A DNA stretch of 6,981 nt from the IMG/VR virus record IMGVR_UViG_2648501669_000014; one strand, written 5' to 3'. How positions within the stretch are numbered: position 1 is the first letter of the stretch; each line of letters begins with the position of its first letter. This document shows, one piece after another, positions 399-6,981 of this stretch. Origin of the DNA: a virus. Its lineage: Duplodnaviria > Heunggongvirae > Uroviricota > Caudoviricetes. The notes below the pieces were generated by a model, which saw nothing but the letters and a program-made list of their open reading frames with translations, was not told the origin of the DNA and ran no database searches. Position numbers and translations under genes: made by a program.

Positions 399-818
399 AT
401 GCTAAAAACTAGGCTTATCACCGATTACATCAATTCTTTAATAGGTCAGGAGTTCGTTCAAGGCGAGAATGATTGCAATCTCATTGCATGTAAGATCATC
501 GATATTCTCGCTGGTACTGACCTATATAATTCTCTTTATAAAAAATATTCAACTAAAGAAGAAGGCTTGAAAATCTGCAAAGAATTAAGCGGATATTCAA
601 ACATCCTTCAACCAATAAAGAAACATTTCAAATTAGTCACTGATGATTTACAGGACGGCGACTTACTGGTCACAGCCCACAAATTAGGAAACCGTAATTA
701 TTATTCCGTAGTTCCTCATTATTCCGGTTATGGCCTCGTTGAAGAAGATGGTATCTGGATGACCATTCCTGTTTCAGACATTGACTATGAACAAGTTTAT
801 AGATTCGGGGGTGAATAA
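399..818 (+). CDS. Tail assembly protein K-like NlpC/P60 (C40) cysteine peptidase, 139 aa
   Basis: ATG 399 lies 8 nt after GGAGG (386..390). The product has a D-C-N-L-I catalytic-Cys-like motif near the N-terminus and a later GDLLVTAH/VVPHY region consistent with the NlpC/P60 Cys...His...His order. Stop TAA 816..818 overlaps the next ATG (TAATG). Position before the J-like gene matches lambda K. No JAB/MPN motif present. Confidence 0.75.
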   Translation: MLKTRLITDYINSLIGQEFVQGENDCNLIACKIIDILAGTDLYNSLYKKYSTKEEGLKICKELSGYSNILQPIKKHFKLVTDDLQDGDLLVTAHKLGNRNYYSVVPHYSGYGLVEEDGIWMTIPVSDIDYEQVYRFGGE

Positions 819-3800
819 TGGGATTTGAAATATTGGTAGGCGCGGTGATCGCTGGTGCTTCGGCGGGGATGGCGGCAGCCGCAACATTTTCTGTTATGAC
901 CGCAGTCGCTATCGGTATGGCTGCTGGTGCAATGACCTTGATCGCTTCCACTGTAGGCGCACCAAAAACACCTAAAGTACAAAGCCCAGATAATGCGGTG
1001 ACACTAGGAACATCAAACGATCCGAAGACAGTATTACCCGTTCTTTTCGGTGTTACCCGTACTGGTACAAACTGCGTTTACAAAGCAATTTCTAAAAGAG
1101 AAAACAATAAGTTAGTGCAAATCTTCGCTGTAGCAGAGGGTGAAATCGACCACTACAAAGCACTGTTTATCGATAATAAAAATGTTCTTGTTGGTAAGAA
1201 CATGACGATCCGTGATGGCATTCTCGATAAGGGCAACATTAAAGAAGAATACCGGAAAGTGTTGGAGGTTGAGTTCCGCACGGGTAAGAATCCTAACACC
1301 GCTTTGTCACTGGCAAAACAGCATTTAGGCTCAGACTGGACCGATGCTTACAAGGGTAACGGCATTGCAACCATGTGTATTGTGTTACGTCGTGATGACA
1401 AATCTCTTGCTGCTGGTGTTGATATCCTTCAACCAAATAGCCAAGTGGCAGTCGATGTTATGGGCTTAAAGATTCGTAACCTTGAAACCAATGCTATTGA
1501 GGCTAGCACTAACGGCGTGGACCAGATTTTCCACTACCTAACAAATGAAAAATATGGCTTATCCGTACCAATTGAAAACATTAACGTTGATTCATTCCTG
1601 AAAGTACGTAAGCAAGTACGCCAGATGGATTTGCATTCAAACGGTGCATGTGATCCGAACGCCAGCTTTAAAGAGAACTTAACTAGCCTTATGCAGACTT
1701 TCGGCGGGGTGATGTTCGAATCCTTCGGAAGAATTACCCTGAAACTGGATGCTCCTGATATTGTTAAGCATACCTTCAATGAAGACAATATCATGATGGG
1801 TAAGGTATCACTGAAAACAGGTGGCACTAACGGTTATTTCAATACCATTAACGCGATGTATCAGGAACCATCAATTGACTATTCCGAGCAAATGCTACGT
1901 TATCCGGCTGATGCTGAAAACGATGCTACTATTCGTCAAGATGGTCGAATTATCGCTAAAGATATTGAATATCGTTTTGTTAAGTCTAAAGCCCAGATTG
2001 ATAAACTTGCGAGTGTAGAACGAAATAAATCTCGTATCACTCAGGTTATCAGCTTTATGACTACTGACGCATTCACTGCCGAAGTTTGGGACGTTATCAG
2101 CGTAACCTATGATGAATTGAAACTGAATAATTCACTTTGGCGTATTACCGCAATTGATCGTTCTATTGATTCTGGTATTGCTGGGATGATGACTATCACC
2201 GCTACAGAATATAATTCTCAGGTTTATACTGACCTGAACTATGCGGCAACTCCAGACAATAGACCAAGTGGTTTACCGGATTCAATGACAGTACAGAAGC
2301 CTACTAATTTCAGAATTAAGGCAACTGGCGAGACGATTTACGGTAAAAACGTTACTTTGACATGGGATGCACCGGAAGATTTTAACCGCTACGGCTTCCA
2401 GATTGATTACCGTGTAAGCGGATCACCTAACTGGATTAAGTTGGGACAGACTTCACAGCAAATTTTCAGTGTCAATGCACTGGCAAAAGATCGTTCCTAC
2501 GATTATCGAGTTTGTGCTTTCGGTATCATCGCGCGATCCGATTGGGTAGAACTGGTTAACCAGAATCCTACCGTTACCTATGAATTGCCGACTCCGGTTA
2601 TTCGAATCAAAAATCAGGGTAGCACGCCAGGAACTTTCGAAGGTAATGATCTGATTATCGAATGGGAAAACCAGCAACAATTAGATGTGATGATCAACGG
2701 TGAAACTAACAAGTTTAGTGACCTGTTTGAAGCATACATTATCAAGGTGACTAACAAGGCTGGTAAGTCTATTCAGTACCGTACCCGCGATCCTGAATCA
2801 TGGACTTATACGCTTGATATGAACCAGTTTAACGGCCTTTCGCGTCAACTGACGGTAGAAGTATCAGCTAAGGGCTATAACAACTCAGAGAGCGCCCCAG
2901 CGCGTTTAGTGGCTATCAACCCACAACATAAGCCAATGAAAGGTTTTAGTGCGCGTGGTGGCTTTAATACTGCGTTTGTTAGCTGGGCGGATGACGTAGA
3001 ACATGACTATGCAGGGTCAATCATCCAGTATGCAACCGACAACACTTTCTCAGATGCAAGGGCAGTAAGCACGAATAGTGTTAGCCATACTTCCTTTGAT
3101 ATTGCTGACGGTGATTATTATATCCGTGGTGCTCACTACGATATTTTCGGTATGGATGATGCTGTTTGGTCTGAACCGTATTTCATGCAAATGAAATCTA
3201 CCATTAGCTGGGACGATCAGGACAAAGAAGCACTGGAAGACCTGATTGGTTTACAAGATCGCTTAGATGAAACCATCGCTGATGCTATTGCTCAAGCTGG
3301 CGCTAATGCCGATGCTAAAATTGATGCAATGCATAAGCAAATCACTACCGAGACGGGTAAAACTGTTCAAGCCTCAGCCGATACCTTAAAGAGTCTGATT
3401 GCTTCTGGTGATAAGGCAAGTTCAACTAAGATTGATCAGGTTAAAGCTGAACTGAAAGGCGATATCACCAAAGAAGTTAGCGCCTCCGCTACAACCCTGA
3501 AACAAGCTATTGCTACCAGTGAAGCAGCAAGCGCAAGTAAGATTGACCAAGTTCGGGTAGAAATGGATGGCAAGATTGCTGGTGTGAATCAGGAAGCGGA
3601 CGTTAAGATCGATGCTTTGAAGGGAACCATTAACAGCAAATACAATCTAGCAGTTAATGCAGATGGTCGCGTGGCTGGCATTCACATGAGCGCAACTAAC
3701 GATCCGGCACAACCGACTAAAATCATCTTTACGGCTGATAAAATTGCTGTAGCTCCGCAGAACGGGACCGATGTTTGCCCGTTTGGTATCGAAGGTAACA

Positions 3801-4594
3801 AGGTTTATCTCGATAATGCGATGATTCGTAATGCCTCAATCGGATCAGCACAGATTACTGATGCTAGTATCACCACGGCTAAAATTGGCAATGCTGCGAT
3901 CAATTCAGCGAAAATCCAAGACGGCGCGATCACCAACGCCAAGATTGTAAATGGCGCAATTGATAACGCTAAAATCGGTAACTATATCCAGTCTTCCAAC
4001 TGGAACGGATCTACCGGATGGCATATCAATAAGAACGGTAGTGCTACGTTCATGAACGCTACCGTTAAAGGTAATATCACGGCTGATTCCGGTACTCTGA
4101 ACAACGTCACGATTAACTCTAGCTGTGTTATTAAGGGTATGCTTGAAGCTACTCAGGTTAAGGGTGATTTCGTTAAGGTGATTGGTCGTAAGTTCCCACA
4201 CCGTGATGTTAACGTTGATAATGGTTATGGTGGCTATCCGCAAGGTACAGTAACCGTTCGCGTTGAAGATGATCACAAGTTCGATCGTCAAATCGTTATT
4301 CCGGCAATTAGTTTTGGTGGATTGCGAGCGCGTGAAGGGTCGAACAATAATACCTATTACGACACCTGTCGCCTGATTGTTCGTAAGAATGGGTCAGAGT
4401 TGTATAATAGGGCGTATGGCGGTAATACTGGTCTTTACTCAGGTGTTATTGATATGCCAGCGGGTAAAGGTGCTGTGACCTTGACCTTTGAAGTGCAATC
4501 AAGCGCAATCAACAACTGGACGCCTAGCACATGGATCAGTGATTTAACTGTAATGGTAACTAAAAAAGCTACTACGGGTATTACTGTTTCTTAA
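818..4594 (+). CDS. Central tail fibre / host specificity protein, lambda gpJ family (1258 aa), with a gpI-C-terminal-like hydrophobic N-terminal module
   Basis: Uninterrupted 3777-nt ORF with GGGGG SD at 806..810. The C-terminal ~180 aa are colinear with my recollection of the lambda J C-terminus (SGTLNNVTI, DDHKFDRQIVIP, VIDMPAGKGAVTLTF, VMVTKK...GITVS versus lambda SGTLSNVTI, DDHPFDRQIVVLP, IVDMPAGRGNVILTF, VMVIKK...GISVV). Central FN3-like repeats (about 2260..3200). The first ~95 aa are a Gly/Ala-rich hydrophobic stretch ending in VLPVLFG, resembling the lambda gpI C-terminus (VLPVLYG). Confidence 0.93.
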   Translation: MGFEILVGAVIAGASAGMAAAATFSVMTAVAIGMAAGAMTLIASTVGAPKTPKVQSPDNAVTLGTSNDPKTVLPVLFGVTRTGTNCVYKAISKRENNKLVQIFAVAEGEIDHYKALFIDNKNVLVGKNMTIRDGILDKGNIKEEYRKVLEVEFRTGKNPNTALSLAKQHLGSDWTDAYKGNGIATMCIVLRRDDKSLAAGVDILQPNSQVAVDVMGLKIRNLETNAIEASTNGVDQIFHYLTNEKYGLSVPIENINVDSFLKVRKQVRQMDLHSNGACDPNASFKENLTSLMQTFGGVMFESFGRITLKLDAPDIVKHTFNEDNIMMGKVSLKTGGTNGYFNTINAMYQEPSIDYSEQMLRYPADAENDATIRQDGRIIAKDIEYRFVKSKAQIDKLASVERNKSRITQVISFMTTDAFTAEVWDVISVTYDELKLNNSLWRITAIDRSIDSGIAGMMTITATEYNSQVYTDLNYAATPDNRPSGLPDSMTVQKPTNFRIKATGETIYGKNVTLTWDAPEDFNRYGFQIDYRVSGSPNWIKLGQTSQQIFSVNALAKDRSYDYRVCAFGIIARSDWVELVNQNPTVTYELPTPVIRIKNQGSTPGTFEGNDLIIEWENQQQLDVMINGETNKFSDLFEAYIIKVTNKAGKSIQYRTRDPESWTYTLDMNQFNGLSRQLTVEVSAKGYNNSESAPARLVAINPQHKPMKGFSARGGFNTAFVSWADDVEHDYAGSIIQYATDNTFSDARAVSTNSVSHTSFDIADGDYYIRGAHYDIFGMDDAVWSEPYFMQMKSTISWDDQDKEALEDLIGLQDRLDETIADAIAQAGANADAKIDAMHKQITTETGKTVQASADTLKSLIASGDKASSTKIDQVKAELKGDITKEVSASATTLKQAIATSEAASASKIDQVRVEMDGKIAGVNQEADVKIDALKGTINSKYNLAVNADGRVAGIHMSATNDPAQPTKIIFTADKIAVAPQNGTDVCPFGIEGNKVYLDNAMIRNASIGSAQITDASITTAKIGNAAINSAKIQDGAITNAKIVNGAIDNAKIGNYIQSSNWNGSTGWHINKNGSATFMNATVKGNITADSGTLNNVTINSSCVIKGMLEATQVKGDFVKVIGRKFPHRDVNVDNGYGGYPQGTVTVRVEDDHKFDRQIVIPAISFGGLRAREGSNNNTYYDTCRLIVRKNGSELYNRAYGGNTGLYSGVIDMPAGKGAVTLTFEVQSSAINNWTPSTWISDLTVMVTKKATTGITVS
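3301..3625 (+). repeat. Imperfect periodic repeats (about 111-114 nt, 37-38 aa) encoding a KID-x-[VA] motif-bearing, Ala/Ser/Thr/Lys-rich, probably helical segment of the J-like protein
   Basis: AKIDAM (about 3313), TKIDQV (about 3428), SKIDQV (about 3539) and VKIDAL (about 3604) recur with similar flanking ...SA.TLK..IA.S context. The DNA pair actaagattgatcaggtt / agtaagattgaccaagtt is visible directly. Confidence 0.6.
3818..3982 (+). repeat. In-frame tandem 30-nt repeats (5-6 copies) encoding a 10-aa unit A-K-I-x-[ND]-[AG]-A-I-x-x inside the J-like gene
   Basis: Translation reads ...AMIRNASIGS AQITDASITT AKIGNAAINS AKIQDGAITN AKIVNGAIDN AKIGNY... with codon boundaries at 3818, 3848, 3878, 3908, 3938, 3968. 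Confidence 0.85.
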
Positions 4595-4612: not shown

Positions 4613-4655
4613 TAATCCCGCTTAATTCTTTTGAGTTAGGCGGGATTATTTTTAT
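4613..4655 (+). terminator. Rho-independent terminator downstream of the J-like gene
   Basis: taatcccgc (4613..4621) pairs with gcgggatta (4640..4648); the stem extends by U-G/A-T pairs to about 13 bp with a roughly 10-nt loop. Followed by TTTTTAT (4649..4655). Lies 19 nt after the J stop. Confidence 0.8.
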
Positions 4656-4698
4656 CTAAATAATTCTGCCATGAAATTATAAAAATATCGGGGGCGTA

Positions 4699-4977
4699 AT
4701 GACTGAAATTATATATGGCGGTATCGGTGTTATCGCCTTAATTTGCGGTGGTCTTTGGAGACTTCACCGAAATCAATTAGCAACTGAAAATAGGTTATCT
4801 AAATTGGAATCCAGCGACGCATTGTTAAACCAGAAGTTTGAGACGATGCAGAATAACCATACTCAGATTGCTGAACGTGTTTACCAAATGGAACAAACAC
4901 TACACGGTATAGAGAAGAAAGTGGTTGCGATGGATGCTAAATTTGACCAAGTTCTCGACATACTCAAACAAAAATAA
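4699..4977 (+). CDS. Small membrane-anchored protein, 92 aa: N-terminal TM helix plus C-terminal predicted coiled coil; function unknown
   Basis: ATG 4699 is preceded by GGGGG (4690..4694). Residues 4-20 (IIYGGIGVIALICGGLW) are hydrophobic and followed by RLHR, which by the positive-inside rule puts the C-terminus in the cytoplasm. The remainder is heptad-like and charged (LSKLESSDALLNQKFETMQ...). Confidence 0.7.
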   Translation: MTEIIYGGIGVIALICGGLWRLHRNQLATENRLSKLESSDALLNQKFETMQNNHTQIAERVYQMEQTLHGIEKKVVAMDAKFDQVLDILKQK

Positions 4978-4995
4978 TAATAAAGGGGTGAATAT

Positions 4996-5166
4996 ATGAA
5001 GAATAAACTTAAGAAATATTTTGGTTATCTCTTGATTGTCGCCCTCACTTATAACGTAGCTATTAGACCTCTGCTAACGTCCTTTGGGCTTGAACTCCCG
5101 GCTATGACCGTGGATGAACAATTGCTAAGGACACTGGCGGGGGTCTTTTCGTTATTAGGGGGCTAA
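4996..5166 (+). CDS. Small hydrophobic protein, 56 aa (not in the supplied ORF track); function unknown
   Basis: ATG 4996 lies 7 nt after AAAGGGG (4982..4988). My translation is MKNKLKKYFGYLLIVALTYNVAIRPLLTSFGLELPAMTVDEQLLRTLAGVFSLLGG, ending TAA 5164..5166. Basic N-terminus then a hydrophobic helix; no Cys, so not a lipoprotein. Stop is 1 nt before the next ATG. Confidence 0.5.
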   Translation: MKNKLKKYFGYLLIVALTYNVAIRPLLTSFGLELPAMTVDEQLLRTLAGVFSLLGG

Positions 5167-5167
5167 C

Positions 5168-5851
5168 ATGGCAACCAGTACCAATAAACGAAACGCTCTA
5201 AGGACTAAGAAAGCGTTACGGCAATGGTCTGAAAAGGCAACCGATACATTCGAAAGGGCACTAGGGGAAGGGGCGATCTTTGCTTCCAGAGCACTCCAGA
5301 AGAAGATTAACAAGAATGTTGATAGACCTACTCGATGGACTCAACAAGCTGTAGGTAATACCAACTACAAGAACCGATCAGGGACGAGACACCAAATCTT
5401 CATCAAGGGCGCAAGGGATAAGGACAAGAAGATCGGCAGTCAGGATGACTATCTGAAACACTATTTCGATGGTGGCAAAATCAATAAGCTAGTGCCAATC
5501 GCTAACGGTAAGGTCTTAGACGCCCACGGGAACATTAAGGCCATCAAAGGCGGTAAGATGATGCGTAACATCGAAAACGGCAACTTCATCAAGGTAGAAA
5601 ACAAGGAAGGAACTTTTATCATGAAGAAGTACAAGCCTAAGAAATCCCGAACCAAACGCGCTAGGAATGGATCGGCGGTGGCAAAACGTCGCTTAGAGAA
5701 ACGCATCCAGAAACAGAGTAAGCGAATTGTTGCCGTTAAGTCGGATAAAATTTCTACTCGTTATTCGACGCTAGGATCGTGGGAAAGCAACGAGGAAATG
5801 ATGCTTAAGAACATTAATAAGCACATTAAATCGCGCATGAGATACGTTTAA
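5168..5851 (+). CDS. Highly basic Lys/Arg-rich protein, 227 aa; function unknown (candidate nucleic-acid-binding or injected protein)
   Basis: ATG 5168 is preceded by GGGGG (5157..5161). Hand count is about 36 K and 21 R against about 19 D+E, so strongly net positive. No motif I recognise. The antisense ORF 5461..5706 is rejected. Confidence 0.75.
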   Translation: MATSTNKRNALRTKKALRQWSEKATDTFERALGEGAIFASRALQKKINKNVDRPTRWTQQAVGNTNYKNRSGTRHQIFIKGARDKDKKIGSQDDYLKHYFDGGKINKLVPIANGKVLDAHGNIKAIKGGKMMRNIENGNFIKVENKEGTFIMKKYKPKKSRTKRARNGSAVAKRRLEKRIQKQSKRIVAVKSDKISTRYSTLGSWESNEEMMLKNINKHIKSRMRYV

Positions 5852-5861
5852 TCCATAAATA

Positions 5862-5883
5862 CCCTCATAGAATCTTATGGGGG
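5862..5883 (+). promoter_or_regulatory. Intergenic stem-loop that pairs with the SD of the 5890 gene (possible translational control or RNA-stability element)
   Basis: ccctcata (5862..5869) pairs with tatggggg (5876..5883), 8 bp including one U-G, loop gaatct. The right arm contains the GGGGG SD (5879..5883) 6 nt before ATG 5890. No U-tract follows, so it is not a typical terminator. Confidence 0.35.
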
Positions 5884-5889
5884 TATAAC

Positions 5890-6237
5890 ATGGCTAAAAA
5901 TATTTTCACTGAATTTCCTACTTATCCGGTCGATCAGCTTTCCGGTATTTTTATTAATGGCATTAGTCCAGAATCAATGACTTATGATTTTGAGGCGAAG
6001 AGAGTTAAACATAAACAATATAAAGAATGTATCCGCGATCATGAAAAAGGGACCGTGTTTTGTGTCGCTACATTGGCTAAACGTCCTAAGTATCGTTTTC
6101 GTGTCGGGCAAGAAGTCGATGTAGTTAATCCTTATAGTTTTAACTGTCTGGGTGATGCACGCGCGGTGTGTGTAGGCACAACTAATTACTACATTAAAGG
6201 ACTCAGATTTACCGGGTATATAATGGAATACATCTAA
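5890..6237 (+). CDS. Hypothetical protein, 115 aa; function unknown
   Basis: ATG 5890 with GGGGG SD. Last gene before the second terminator. The overlapping antisense ORF 5974..6318 lacks supporting signals. Confidence 0.65.
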   Translation: MAKNIFTEFPTYPVDQLSGIFINGISPESMTYDFEAKRVKHKQYKECIRDHEKGTVFCVATLAKRPKYRFRVGQEVDVVNPYSFNCLGDARAVCVGTTNYYIKGLRFTGYIMEYI

Positions 6238-6251
6238 CTCTAATAAATACG

Positions 6252-6280
6252 AGCGACCAATTTCGGTCGCTTTTTTATTT
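6252..6280 (+). terminator. Rho-independent terminator after the four-gene cassette
   Basis: agcgacc (6252..6258) pairs with ggtcgct (6265..6271), 7-bp GC-rich stem with a 6-nt loop, followed by TTTTTTATTT (to 6280). It abuts the GGAGG SD (6281..6285) of the next gene. Confidence 0.8.
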
Positions 6281-6289
6281 GGAGGAATC

Positions 6290-6739
6290 ATGGAGATTTT
6301 ATTTGCTGAATATATCAACTACACCGGATTTACAAGAAAAACGCCTCTTGACTATGAACCTATTGCCATTAAACGTTGTGATGAGTTGGGGTACATCTAT
6401 AACGGTTTTGTTGTGCCGTGGAAAGGGCAACATACACCCGTTTCTATAACCTGCAAGAAACATAGCACAACGCGAACAATTGCTTTCAAAACTCTTAAAA
6501 AACAAGGTGCGTGTCTTGAATGCTATAAAGAATCATTAAAACTTCCTAAGAAAAAGAATAGAGATAAGGAAGCTGTATTAGATAAAGCAAGCAATGTGCT
6601 GGAACGCAAAGATATGGTTTTAGTTGGATTGTTAGAAGATTATAAAGGATTAGACACAAAAGTTTCTTATAAGTGCAATTGCTGTGATACTGCATACGAA
6701 ACCATAATCACTAGAATCATAAACGATGATGCTGGGTAG
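6290..6739 (+). CDS. Cys-rich protein with two tandem zinc-ribbon-like modules (at least 149 aa); 3' end interrupted by IS2, likely C-terminally truncated
   Basis: ATG 6290 lies 5 nt after GGAGG. Contains C-x2-H-x16-C-x2-C (CKKH...CLEC) and a second related module (VSITC... / VSYKCNCC...). The terminal TAG (6737..6739) is the first 3 nt of the IS2 left end, so the native C-terminus is missing. Confidence 0.7.
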   Translation: MEILFAEYINYTGFTRKTPLDYEPIAIKRCDELGYIYNGFVVPWKGQHTPVSITCKKHSTTRTIAFKTLKKQGACLECYKESLKLPKKKNRDKEAVLDKASNVLERKDMVLVGLLEDYKGLDTKVSYKCNCCDTAYETIITRIINDDAG

Positions 6740-6981
6740 ACTGGCCCCCTGAATCTCCAGACAACCAGTATCACTTAAATAAGTGATAGTCTTAATACTA
6801 GTTTTTAGACTAGTCATTGGAGAACAGATGATTGATGTCTTAGGGCCGGAGAAACGCAGACGGCGTACCACACAGGAAAAGATCGCAATTGTTCAGCAGA
6901 GCTTTGAACCGGGGATGACGGTCTCCCTCGTTGCCCGGCAACATGGTGTAGCAGCCAGCCAGTTAAGTCGCTGGCCTACAC
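6737..6981 (+). mobile_element. IS2 (IS3 family) insertion sequence, left end; continues beyond the window
   Basis: Sequence from 6737 (TAGACTGGCCCCCTGAATCTCCAGACAACCAGTATCACTTAAATAAGTGATAGTC...) matches my recollection of the IS2 left terminus and leader. It is followed by the insC start. The left terminal inverted repeat is about the first 41 bp (6737..6777). Confidence 0.9.
6828..6981 (+). CDS. insC: IS2 transposase OrfA (InsC), 5' portion; 3' end outside the window
   Basis: Translation [46 protein letters not shown]... matches remembered IS2 InsC. ATG 6828 is preceded by GGAGAA. Confidence 0.9.

Follow-up and report, generated by a model that had tools for sequence, protein, structure and literature searches.

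A very basic 227-residue protein of an Escherichia coli prophage is a candidate divergent tail completion protein encoded outside the neck module

We have analyzed a gene located at positions 5168-5851 (+ strand, stop codon included) of a 6,981-nucleotide stretch of DNA from a virus of the Caudoviricetes (IMG/VR record IMGVR_UViG_2648501669_000014, the whole stretch being called here the window), which codes for a very basic protein of 227 amino acids (aa). Our analysis indicates, with a probability that we put at roughly 65%, that this gene codes for a divergent tail completion protein (TCP, or Ne1) of a cos-packaging siphovirus-type prophage, belonging to the superfamily of PHROG 1924 (phrog_1924) and, more distantly, of lambda gpZ, HK97 gp10 and 80alpha gp51. 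The evidence consists of homology to phrog_1924, whose members are in turn partly homologous to gpZ at the N-terminus, together with a match in fold to the TCP of 80alpha, conserved synteny and purifying selection. We infer the presence of the protein in the virion, its location, its copy number and its contact with the DNA end by analogy with the solved neck of 80alpha and the genetics of lambda gpZ and SPP1 gp16.1.

The open reading frame (ORF) runs from an ATG to a TAA over 227 codons. By translation the protein has 36 Lys and 21 Arg (57 basic residues) against 9 Asp and 10 Glu (19 acidic residues), exactly the composition that a first-pass annotation of this stretch had counted by hand as about 57 and about 19. 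The predicted isoelectric point (pI) is 10.77 and the mass 26.1 kDa, and the protein is locally conspicuous because the remaining ORFs of the window have pI values of only 5.2-9.6. The charge is distributed along the chain, with a maximum at residues 141-200 (net +5 to +8 per 20 residues). This is a genuine, constrained gene. The same coding sequence, labelled "hypothetical protein", is found in RefSeq on a 99.9% identical E. coli chromosome. The dN/dS values against the homologues of Salmonella (74% identity) and of a second E. coli (57%) were 0.08-0.17, with dS saturated, and length, motifs and neighbors are retained in homologues as far as 23% identity. A chance ORF was ruled out, since the gene is conserved and under purifying selection. 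An AGGGGG run resembling a ribosome-binding site (5157-5162), the TAA stop of the upstream 56-aa gene (5164-5166) and the ATG (5168-5170) can be read directly in the + strand between 5157 and 5170, so that the gene starts 1 nt past the preceding stop. This layout suggests that it is translationally coupled to the 56-aa gene.

The family to which the protein belongs was built by successive searches (a search of 5.8 billion proteins, an exhaustive search of representatives and a profile search). The first of them gave six clusters from E. coli and Salmonella at 57-97% identity, the exhaustive search gave further relatives at 29-41% identity, and the profile search added prophage proteins of Citrobacter, Klebsiella, Enterobacter and Kluyvera. 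A third homologue search, with a 31-sequence profile, returned fewer matches than the second. The resulting family is enterobacterial, comprises roughly 35 clusters, and its members have 180-240 aa and pI values of 10.1-11.2. The conserved core (residues 3-124; positions 5174-5539, + strand) is the region that aligns to phrog_1924-type proteins and holds the invariant columns. It contains a long N-terminal helix, a DRPTxFT motif that reads DRPTRWT in the window protein (residues 52-58), a beta-hairpin, Q..YL (92-96), K107, P110 and GNI (121-123). The invariant or near-invariant positions are L43, P54, T58, Q92, Y95, L96, K107, P110, G121 and N122. Downstream of the core, the family alignments delimit a Lys/Arg-rich insertion, KYKPKKSRTKRARNGSAVAKRRLEKRIQKQSKR, at residues about 154-186 (5627-5725, + strand), which accounts for 18 of the 57 basic residues and is the densest local charge of the protein. 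As aligned, the insertion is lineage-specific, confined to the E. coli and Salmonella branch plus a different form in the member P0011, and most members are without it. After a conserved LGSWE motif, a C-terminal helix is predicted at residues about 205-227 (5780-5848, + strand), which is conserved in the family and which AlphaFold2 placed with low confidence at residues 205-225.

When the window protein was scanned against PHROGs with hmmscan, a single weak match was found, to phrog_1924 ("minor tail protein", E 4.9e-4), and this match was reproduced in 9 of 13 family members (best E 9.8e-6). The first-pass annotation had assigned the protein to an unknown family without recognizable catalytic motif. 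This holds for Pfam and NCBIfam, in which the window protein and 13 relatives had no meaningful matches, and not for PHROGs. We assembled a comparison set of 12 phage proteins whose own phrog_1924 scores were between 1e-48 and 5e-93. The hhalign comparison of the 31-sequence family with this set gave a probability of 98.2% and an E-value of 3.8e-14 over 111 columns, with a score of 95.5 versus 11.2 +/- 2.0 in 100 column-shuffled controls. At the level of sequence profiles, this establishes that the family is homologous to the phrog_1924 minor tail proteins.

With the window protein as query, tblastn found no match in the phage and plasmid collections. Matches in the phage collections were obtained solely with more distant family members as queries, and these reached gp49 of Dinoroseobacter phage R4C (vB_DshS-R4C), annotated as "minor tail protein", that carries the DRPTPFT, Q..YL and YGN motifs of the family. 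Its relatives are found in Rhodobacter phages of the RcCronus type, Ralstonia phages, Citrobacter phage phiNP, Serratia phage BZS1 and many lambdoid phages of Pseudomonas, some of them annotated as "minor tail protein Z" or "tail completion protein". The members of phrog_1924 include, besides R4C gp49, RcCronus and RcRhea gp45, LESphi3 P31_35 ("minor tail protein Z"), phiNP_029 and BZS1 p72. One more homologue, 52% identical to the family member P0013, appeared in Escherichia phage DCP80 (PQ671644.1, 11659-36108), a 141-kb record classed as T4-like Straboviridae. There, T4-like early genes (motA, ndd) adjoin a J-like gene of siphovirus type, genes for endonuclease VII and endolysin, and the homologue, and the record gives the impression of a chimeric assembly or of an unusual mosaic.

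The resemblance between the two groups extends to several features. They have in common the DRPT(P)FT, Q..YL, GG and YGN motifs, which in the window protein correspond to D52-T58, Q92, Y95 and L96, G102-G103 and G121-N122-I123. Lengths are comparable (about 180-250 aa), and so are the pI values (10.1-12.0 in the phrog_1924 set). In phiNP_029, BZS1_p72 and phiAP1_320 there is a Lys/Arg-rich insert at the very site of the insertion described above, KPKKSKRKKRAKRSPNG in phiNP versus KPKKSRTKRARNGS in the window protein. Both groups go with head modules of GpA-type terminase, and in both the gene is found close to lysis genes and upstream of TerS rather than in the neck module. In the window prophage, this is a late-region gene located between the tail and lysis genes and the TerS of a GpA-terminase phage. 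On the other hand, the identity is only about 22%, the hmmscan E-values are marginal (5e-4 to 1e-5), and the alignment ends at about residue 124, the C-terminal halves being alignable solely by eye. Besides, in the prophage map the gene comes after the J-like tail-tip gene and not after an Rz gene, and its conserved partner, a 56-aa membrane protein, was not seen in the phrog_1924 phages.

Proteins of the phrog_1924 type gave matches to phrog_27 ("tail completion or Neck1 protein"), with E-values of 4e-8 to 3e-3. Lambda gpZ in turn matches phrog_27 (E 3e-69) and also phrog_1924 (E 1.9e-4), and the Pfam family Minor_tail_Z gave sub-threshold matches to R4C gp49 (E 0.013) and to the LESphi3 protein (E 0.075). 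The relatives of lambda gpZ retrieved by locus search were all at least 99% identical copies, of no use for a profile. The hhalign comparison of the phrog_1924 set with eight gpZ relatives gave a probability of 66% and E 5.5e-5 over the N-terminal 74 columns only, with a score of 37.4 versus 12.4 +/- 1.9 in shuffles (maximum 19.6). With a merged profile, residues about 8-80 of the window protein came in register with residues 3-75 of gpZ (E 0.004). The relationship of the 227-aa protein to gpZ and the TCPs is supported but partial. Like the 227-aa protein, lambda gpZ (PF06763, Minor_tail_Z; PHROG 27) is very basic (46 Lys and Arg versus 9 Asp and Glu in 192 aa), has a hairpin after a long helical region at the N-terminus, as well as a central poly-basic stretch (RRRRRKK in the middle of gpZ), and comes from a cos-packaging phage with a GpA terminase. 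The middle and C-terminal parts of both proteins, in contrast, are not alignable. The gpZ relatives have pI values of 11.7-12.0, and an extremely high Lys/Arg content characterizes the superfamily as a whole.

Structure prediction, which the first-pass annotation had suggested as a check, gave poor models. AlphaFold models of the protein reached a pLDDT of 42 with a 7-sequence alignment and 54 with a 26-sequence alignment. The better one has an N-terminal helix of 49 residues, then a short helix and a beta-hairpin (residues 62-79). Its middle is ill defined, with two further hairpin strands, and besides the C-terminal helix there is one in the basic insert. The best fold match of this low-confidence model was a TCP, that of 80alpha (PDB 9mu2 chain P). 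To our knowledge, this protein (9mu2_P) is the only TCP that has been located experimentally. Foldseek searches of the model in PDB and BFVD returned no entry with E below 0.06, and one HK97-gp10-like entry of BFVD appeared at E 1.4. We treat the fold match as supporting evidence only, since the model is weak; being independent of the chain of sequence comparisons, it appears to point to the same family. The order of elements predicted in the model, a long bent N-terminal helix, a loop that holds a beta-hairpin, then a C-terminal helix, appears to be that of 80alpha gp51 and the HK97 gp10 family (PMC11661146), and gpZ has been described as having the same fold as the 80alpha TCP, enlarged at the apex by the insertion of an additional domain (PMC11661146). 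However, the identity to 80alpha gp51 is 10%, the 227-aa protein is twice as long, with an inserted beta and basic region, and 80alpha packages by headful, unlike the cos-type head module of the prophage. Sequence-profile searches of PDB with the family, the phrog_1924 set and lambda gpZ gave nothing; matches to OXA beta-lactamase and BMX at E 0.1-0.7 were dismissed as noise. Another annotated TCP, T5 p143, located at the tail tip beside pb3, was rejected as a relative, with hhalign probabilities of 0.5% (family) and 0.2% (phrog_1924 set). It is similar in size (255 aa), its AlphaFold predictions are also poor (PMC11784142), and the position of our gene next to the tail-tip gene is a loose echo of its location, but the T5 gene lies within the neck module.

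The element that carries the gene is a siphovirus-type prophage, about 41 kb long, with hicB as its insertion site (NZ_CM149869.1, about 2455951-2496987). The window, apart from the IS2 insertion sequence (IS) at its right end (about 6735-6978), is 99.9% identical to this chromosome, that of E. coli HCP5S3_I4. Of 5,426 complete E. coli genomes, 55 (~1%) have the segment 4600-6740, in the chromosome every time. The prophage codes for a large serine recombinase, a GpA-type large terminase, a 165-aa head-tail joining protein, a lambda-type portal, a protease-capsid fusion (its gene cut by IS2) and major tail, tape measure, distal tail and DUF6950 proteins, followed by a J-like tail-tip protein of 1,258 aa (window 818-4594; PF09327, PF12421). 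Its TerS is a separate gene (phrog_57, E 6e-12; L088:25298-25849 on the prophage map) just inside the other prophage end, so that on the circular phage genome the order is tail tip, the 227-aa gene, lysis genes, integrase with attP, and TerS, the same as in the relatives. That the 227-aa protein might itself be TerS was rejected, separate TerS genes being present in the prophage and beside the homologues in R4C, LESphi3, phiNP and the metagenomic contig L108. The neck module, about 14 kb upstream in the prophage map, has genes of 96, 140 and 277 aa, among which there was no recognizable Ne1 or TCP, and the 227-aa protein is therefore the only TCP candidate of this phage.

We have compared the surroundings of the gene in other elements. 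The window has the order J-like gene, 92 aa, 56 aa, the 227-aa gene, 115 aa, an endonuclease gene (phrog_681, CapR) split by IS2, and endolysin. In Salmonella and in a second E. coli lineage the order is J-like gene, 92 aa, 56 or 57 aa, homologue, 115-117 aa and M15 endolysin, and in Citrobacter (29% identity) it is J-like gene, about 100 aa, 59 aa, homologue and the prophage end. Contig L108 has endonuclease VII, a 133-aa protein with a phrog_2024 C-terminus, the homologue, 130 aa, TerS, GpA TerL, portal and protease-capsid. In LESphi3, phiNP, BZS1 and Solano the phrog_1924 gene is found behind the lysis genes (holin, endolysin, Rz) and ahead of TerS, and in R4C and RcRhea it is the last gene before the cohesive end and TerS. 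The 227-aa gene co-occurs with lambda-type head modules of GpA terminase, portal and protease-capsid. A variant was seen in a Kluyvera intermedia prophage (CP162029.1, 3244189-3260731), where the homologue comes after the J-like gene and an Endonuclease_7 gene and is followed by a tail-assembly-chaperone-like gene and, at the prophage end, a 779-aa gene with a weak SHOCT match that might code for the tape measure protein. This order suggests a rearrangement or a different integration point.

Several observations weigh against assigning the protein to the TCPs. The direct hhalign comparison of the family with the gpZ alignment found no match (probability 0.06%), and neither PF06763, PF04883 (the HK97 gp10 family) nor phrog_27 matched the window protein or the 13 family members. 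The link to gpZ, as read from the profiles, is transitive and confined to about 75 residues. The gene is outside the neck module, unlike the TCP genes of the five out of five siphoviruses tabulated in PMC11099176 (Table 1), and it is not located between the head-closure (FII) and tail-terminator (U) genes, as the gpZ gene is in lambda. We found no experimental characterization of any phrog_1924 member in the literature. The main text of the R4C cryo-EM paper describes 12 structural proteins and mentions neither "gp49" nor "049"; TCPs are often missed in symmetrised maps (PMC11784142, PMC11661146). We do not call the 227-aa protein "a gpZ" because it gave no direct match to the gpZ Pfam family and its gene is not in the canonical position, but it probably works like gpZ. 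Most likely it represents a divergent, hitherto unannotated branch of the phrog_1924/TCP superfamily, an ordinary virion part with an unusual gene position.

The prototype of the TCPs is lambda gpZ, in whose absence particles still form but are about 500-fold less infectious, and it has been proposed to bind one DNA end (PMC11661146, PMC4362835). SPP1 gp16.1 aids the joining of tail to head and is required to route the DNA into the cytoplasm (PMC11099176). The 80alpha TCP is a monomer inside the neck, stacked on the last base pair with its positive surface toward the DNA, and forms a beta-sheet with three N-termini of the tape measure protein (PMC11661146). By analogy, one or few copies of the 227-aa protein would join the finished tail, at or before head-tail joining, and would sit in the lumen of the neck or upper tail, with the packaged DNA end on one side and the N-terminal ends of the trimeric tape measure protein on the other. 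There it would cap the cohesive DNA end and connect it to the tape measure protein, with its positive surface toward the DNA. The high positive charge would serve contact with DNA and perhaps with the tail lumen, which is negative in 80alpha and R4C, and the Lys/Arg-rich loop (about 154-186) may add contacts of either kind. At infection, the protein would exit with the tape measure protein and the DNA. Particles without it are expected to look normal and to have poor infectivity.

A different role close to the DNA end is an accessory of cos packaging that is not part of the virion, binding cos or the DNA end and assisting the GpA-type terminase, or holding the end at head completion. We consider it unlikely. 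The high basicity, the constant association of the family and of phrog_1924 with GpA-type terminase and lambda-type portal modules, the position directly upstream of TerS in many phages, the 13-base cohesive ends of the RcCronus-type phages and a weak TerS PHROG match of one family member (E 0.026) would all fit, and so would the absence of R4C gp49 from the structural proteins in the cryo-EM text. However, the N-terminal region is homologous to gpZ/Ne1 and a distinct TerS gene is present in each genome examined, the prophage included. Actually, this role and that of a tail protein partly overlap, because gpZ, a tail protein, was itself proposed to bind the DNA end (PMC11661146). Somewhat less probable still, we also contemplate that the TCP-like gene, having departed from the neck module and being transcribed together with, and coupled in translation to, the gene of a small conserved membrane protein of the lysis region, marks a variant in which the DNA-end-capping protein has a second job, distinct from the classical TCPs encoded in the neck. 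It could be, for example, a pilot protein that together with a membrane partner routes or protects the cohesive end at the inner membrane, or a link of packaging and cos-end handling with tail joining in GpA-terminase phages.

The role proposed by the first-pass annotation, an internal or pilot protein injected with an anti-defence function, such as shielding the incoming DNA end from nucleases or restriction, appears very improbable. Its general idea of a basic, packaged protein in contact with nucleic acid agrees with the TCP evidence, but the comparison with T4 internal proteins and the anti-defence function do not. The basic composition and the capping of the DNA end by TCPs (PMC11661146) are in its favor. 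Moreover, weak labelling of gpZ by a TurboID-ManZ fusion at the inner membrane was observed during lambda injection (PMC13190303), and therefore a TCP-like protein could enter with the DNA. Nevertheless, the annotation itself had named homology to a structural family of other role as what would speak against an anti-defence protein, and that is what the profile match to the minor tail proteins of phrog_1924 indicates (98.2%, E 3.8e-14), together with the TCP as the best fold match of the model. PHROGs gave phrog_1924 alone, and no pointer to anti-restriction or anti-defence was found in the Pfam, NCBIfam or PHROGs scans; PADLOC, whose models are of defence systems and not of anti-defence, was not searched. 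The host element is a siphovirus-type prophage and not a T4-like phage, and conservation with fixed synteny resembles a core structural gene rather than a variable accessory one. A T4-type internal protein (IPI, IPII, IPIII) was rejected, PHROGs having returned only phrog_1924 and the element being a lambda/R4C-like siphovirus-type prophage. The location of the gene between two small membrane-protein genes and an endolysin gene raised, finally, a component or regulator of the lysis cassette, the least probable of these roles. The order 92-aa transmembrane protein, 56-aa transmembrane protein, 227-aa protein, 115-aa protein and M15 endolysin in the E. coli and Salmonella relatives, the suggested coupling to the 56-aa gene and the lysis genes ahead of phrog_1924 in four phages would agree with it. 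Opposed to it are the homology to minor tail and TCP families, the Citrobacter block of three genes that stands at the prophage end with no endolysin gene within the 10 kb shown downstream, and the R4C homologue, which comes after replication genes. The 227-aa protein has no transmembrane segment (maximum hydropathy 0.58), on which ground a membrane or lysis protein was rejected, and neither signal peptide nor lipobox was seen by eye.

Identified as a divergent TCP, a protein so far annotated as "hypothetical" receives a name and a testable role, and related prophages of Salmonella, Citrobacter, Klebsiella, Enterobacter and Kluyvera carry it as well. If this is true, the TCPs of siphoviruses are not invariably encoded in the neck module, and a whole branch, phrog_1924 plus the family described here, has its genes close to those for lysis and terminase in cos phages. 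Searches for TCPs based on position would miss such genes, and this may explain phages apparently without TCP, such as R4C. Where TCPs are located and how they work is only now coming to light, and a very basic variant bearing an insert could help to reveal how the DNA end is held and released.

The gene is part of a unit of four (92, 56, 227 and 115 aa; 4699-6237) flanked on both sides by terminator-like hairpins (4613-4648 and 6251-6272). The one that separates it from the J-like gene (4613-4658, + strand) resembles a strong intrinsic terminator, with a 16-bp stem and a T run, and the one located 3' of the 115-aa gene (6251-6282) is bidirectional and closes the unit. No sigma-70-like promoter was found upstream of the unit on the + strand. 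The first gene (4699-4977, + strand) codes for a 92-aa protein, conserved in position, that has a coiled coil besides a transmembrane segment at its N-terminus (residues 4-22, where hydropathy peaks at 1.77). Its Pfam matches were weak and of coiled-coil type only. The second (4996-5166, + strand), the conserved partner immediately upstream, codes for a small hydrophobic protein of 56 aa (hydropathy maximum 1.56) with a weak match to phrog_2024 (E 0.0054), and is found at the equivalent position in the Citrobacter, Salmonella and E. coli relatives. In contig L108, the 133-aa protein directly upstream of the homologue (L108:3604-4005) matches phrog_2024 at its C-terminus with E 1.2e-6. Two such small membrane-type proteins (92 and 56 aa) precede the gene in every enterobacterial prophage seen, and may be related in function to holins or act as partner to the TCP-like protein. 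The conserved downstream neighbor is the 115-aa gene (5890-6237, + strand), recognized by synteny, that had no family matches in Pfam, PHROGs or NCBIfam and is followed directly by the M15 endolysin gene in uninterrupted relatives. In the window, the next gene is the endonuclease (6290-6739; CapR domain PF21817; phrog_681, annotated endonuclease), split by IS2 at about 6737, which looks like a homing endonuclease. Its C-terminal part is a 175-aa ORF beyond IS2 in the E. coli chromosome (L001:21691-24064). The entire endonuclease gene is missing from the Salmonella and other E. coli relatives, in which the 115-aa gene is followed by endolysin.

Other parts of the prophage deserve mention. IS2 within the protease-capsid gene, a second IS2, IS1 and IS5 are present, and the copy in HCP5S3_I4 is probably defective because it carries several IS elements. 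The TerS gene is about 6 kb from TerL, with unrelated genes between them, some on the opposite strand. At the left end of the window, a mechanical ORF of 191 aa (243-818) overlaps the end of the upstream tail gene; according to RefSeq the DUF6950 gene starts at window position 399 (139 aa), and its stop codon overlaps with the ATG at which the J-like gene begins (818). Within the tail region, upstream of the window (L001:6510-11326), a 1,202-aa protein with tail-fibre domains is found between 277-aa and 156-aa genes resembling major tail protein genes (both phrog_158), and a T4 Gp38-like adhesin gene comes next after the 156-aa gene, a layout that is unusual for a siphovirus tail module.

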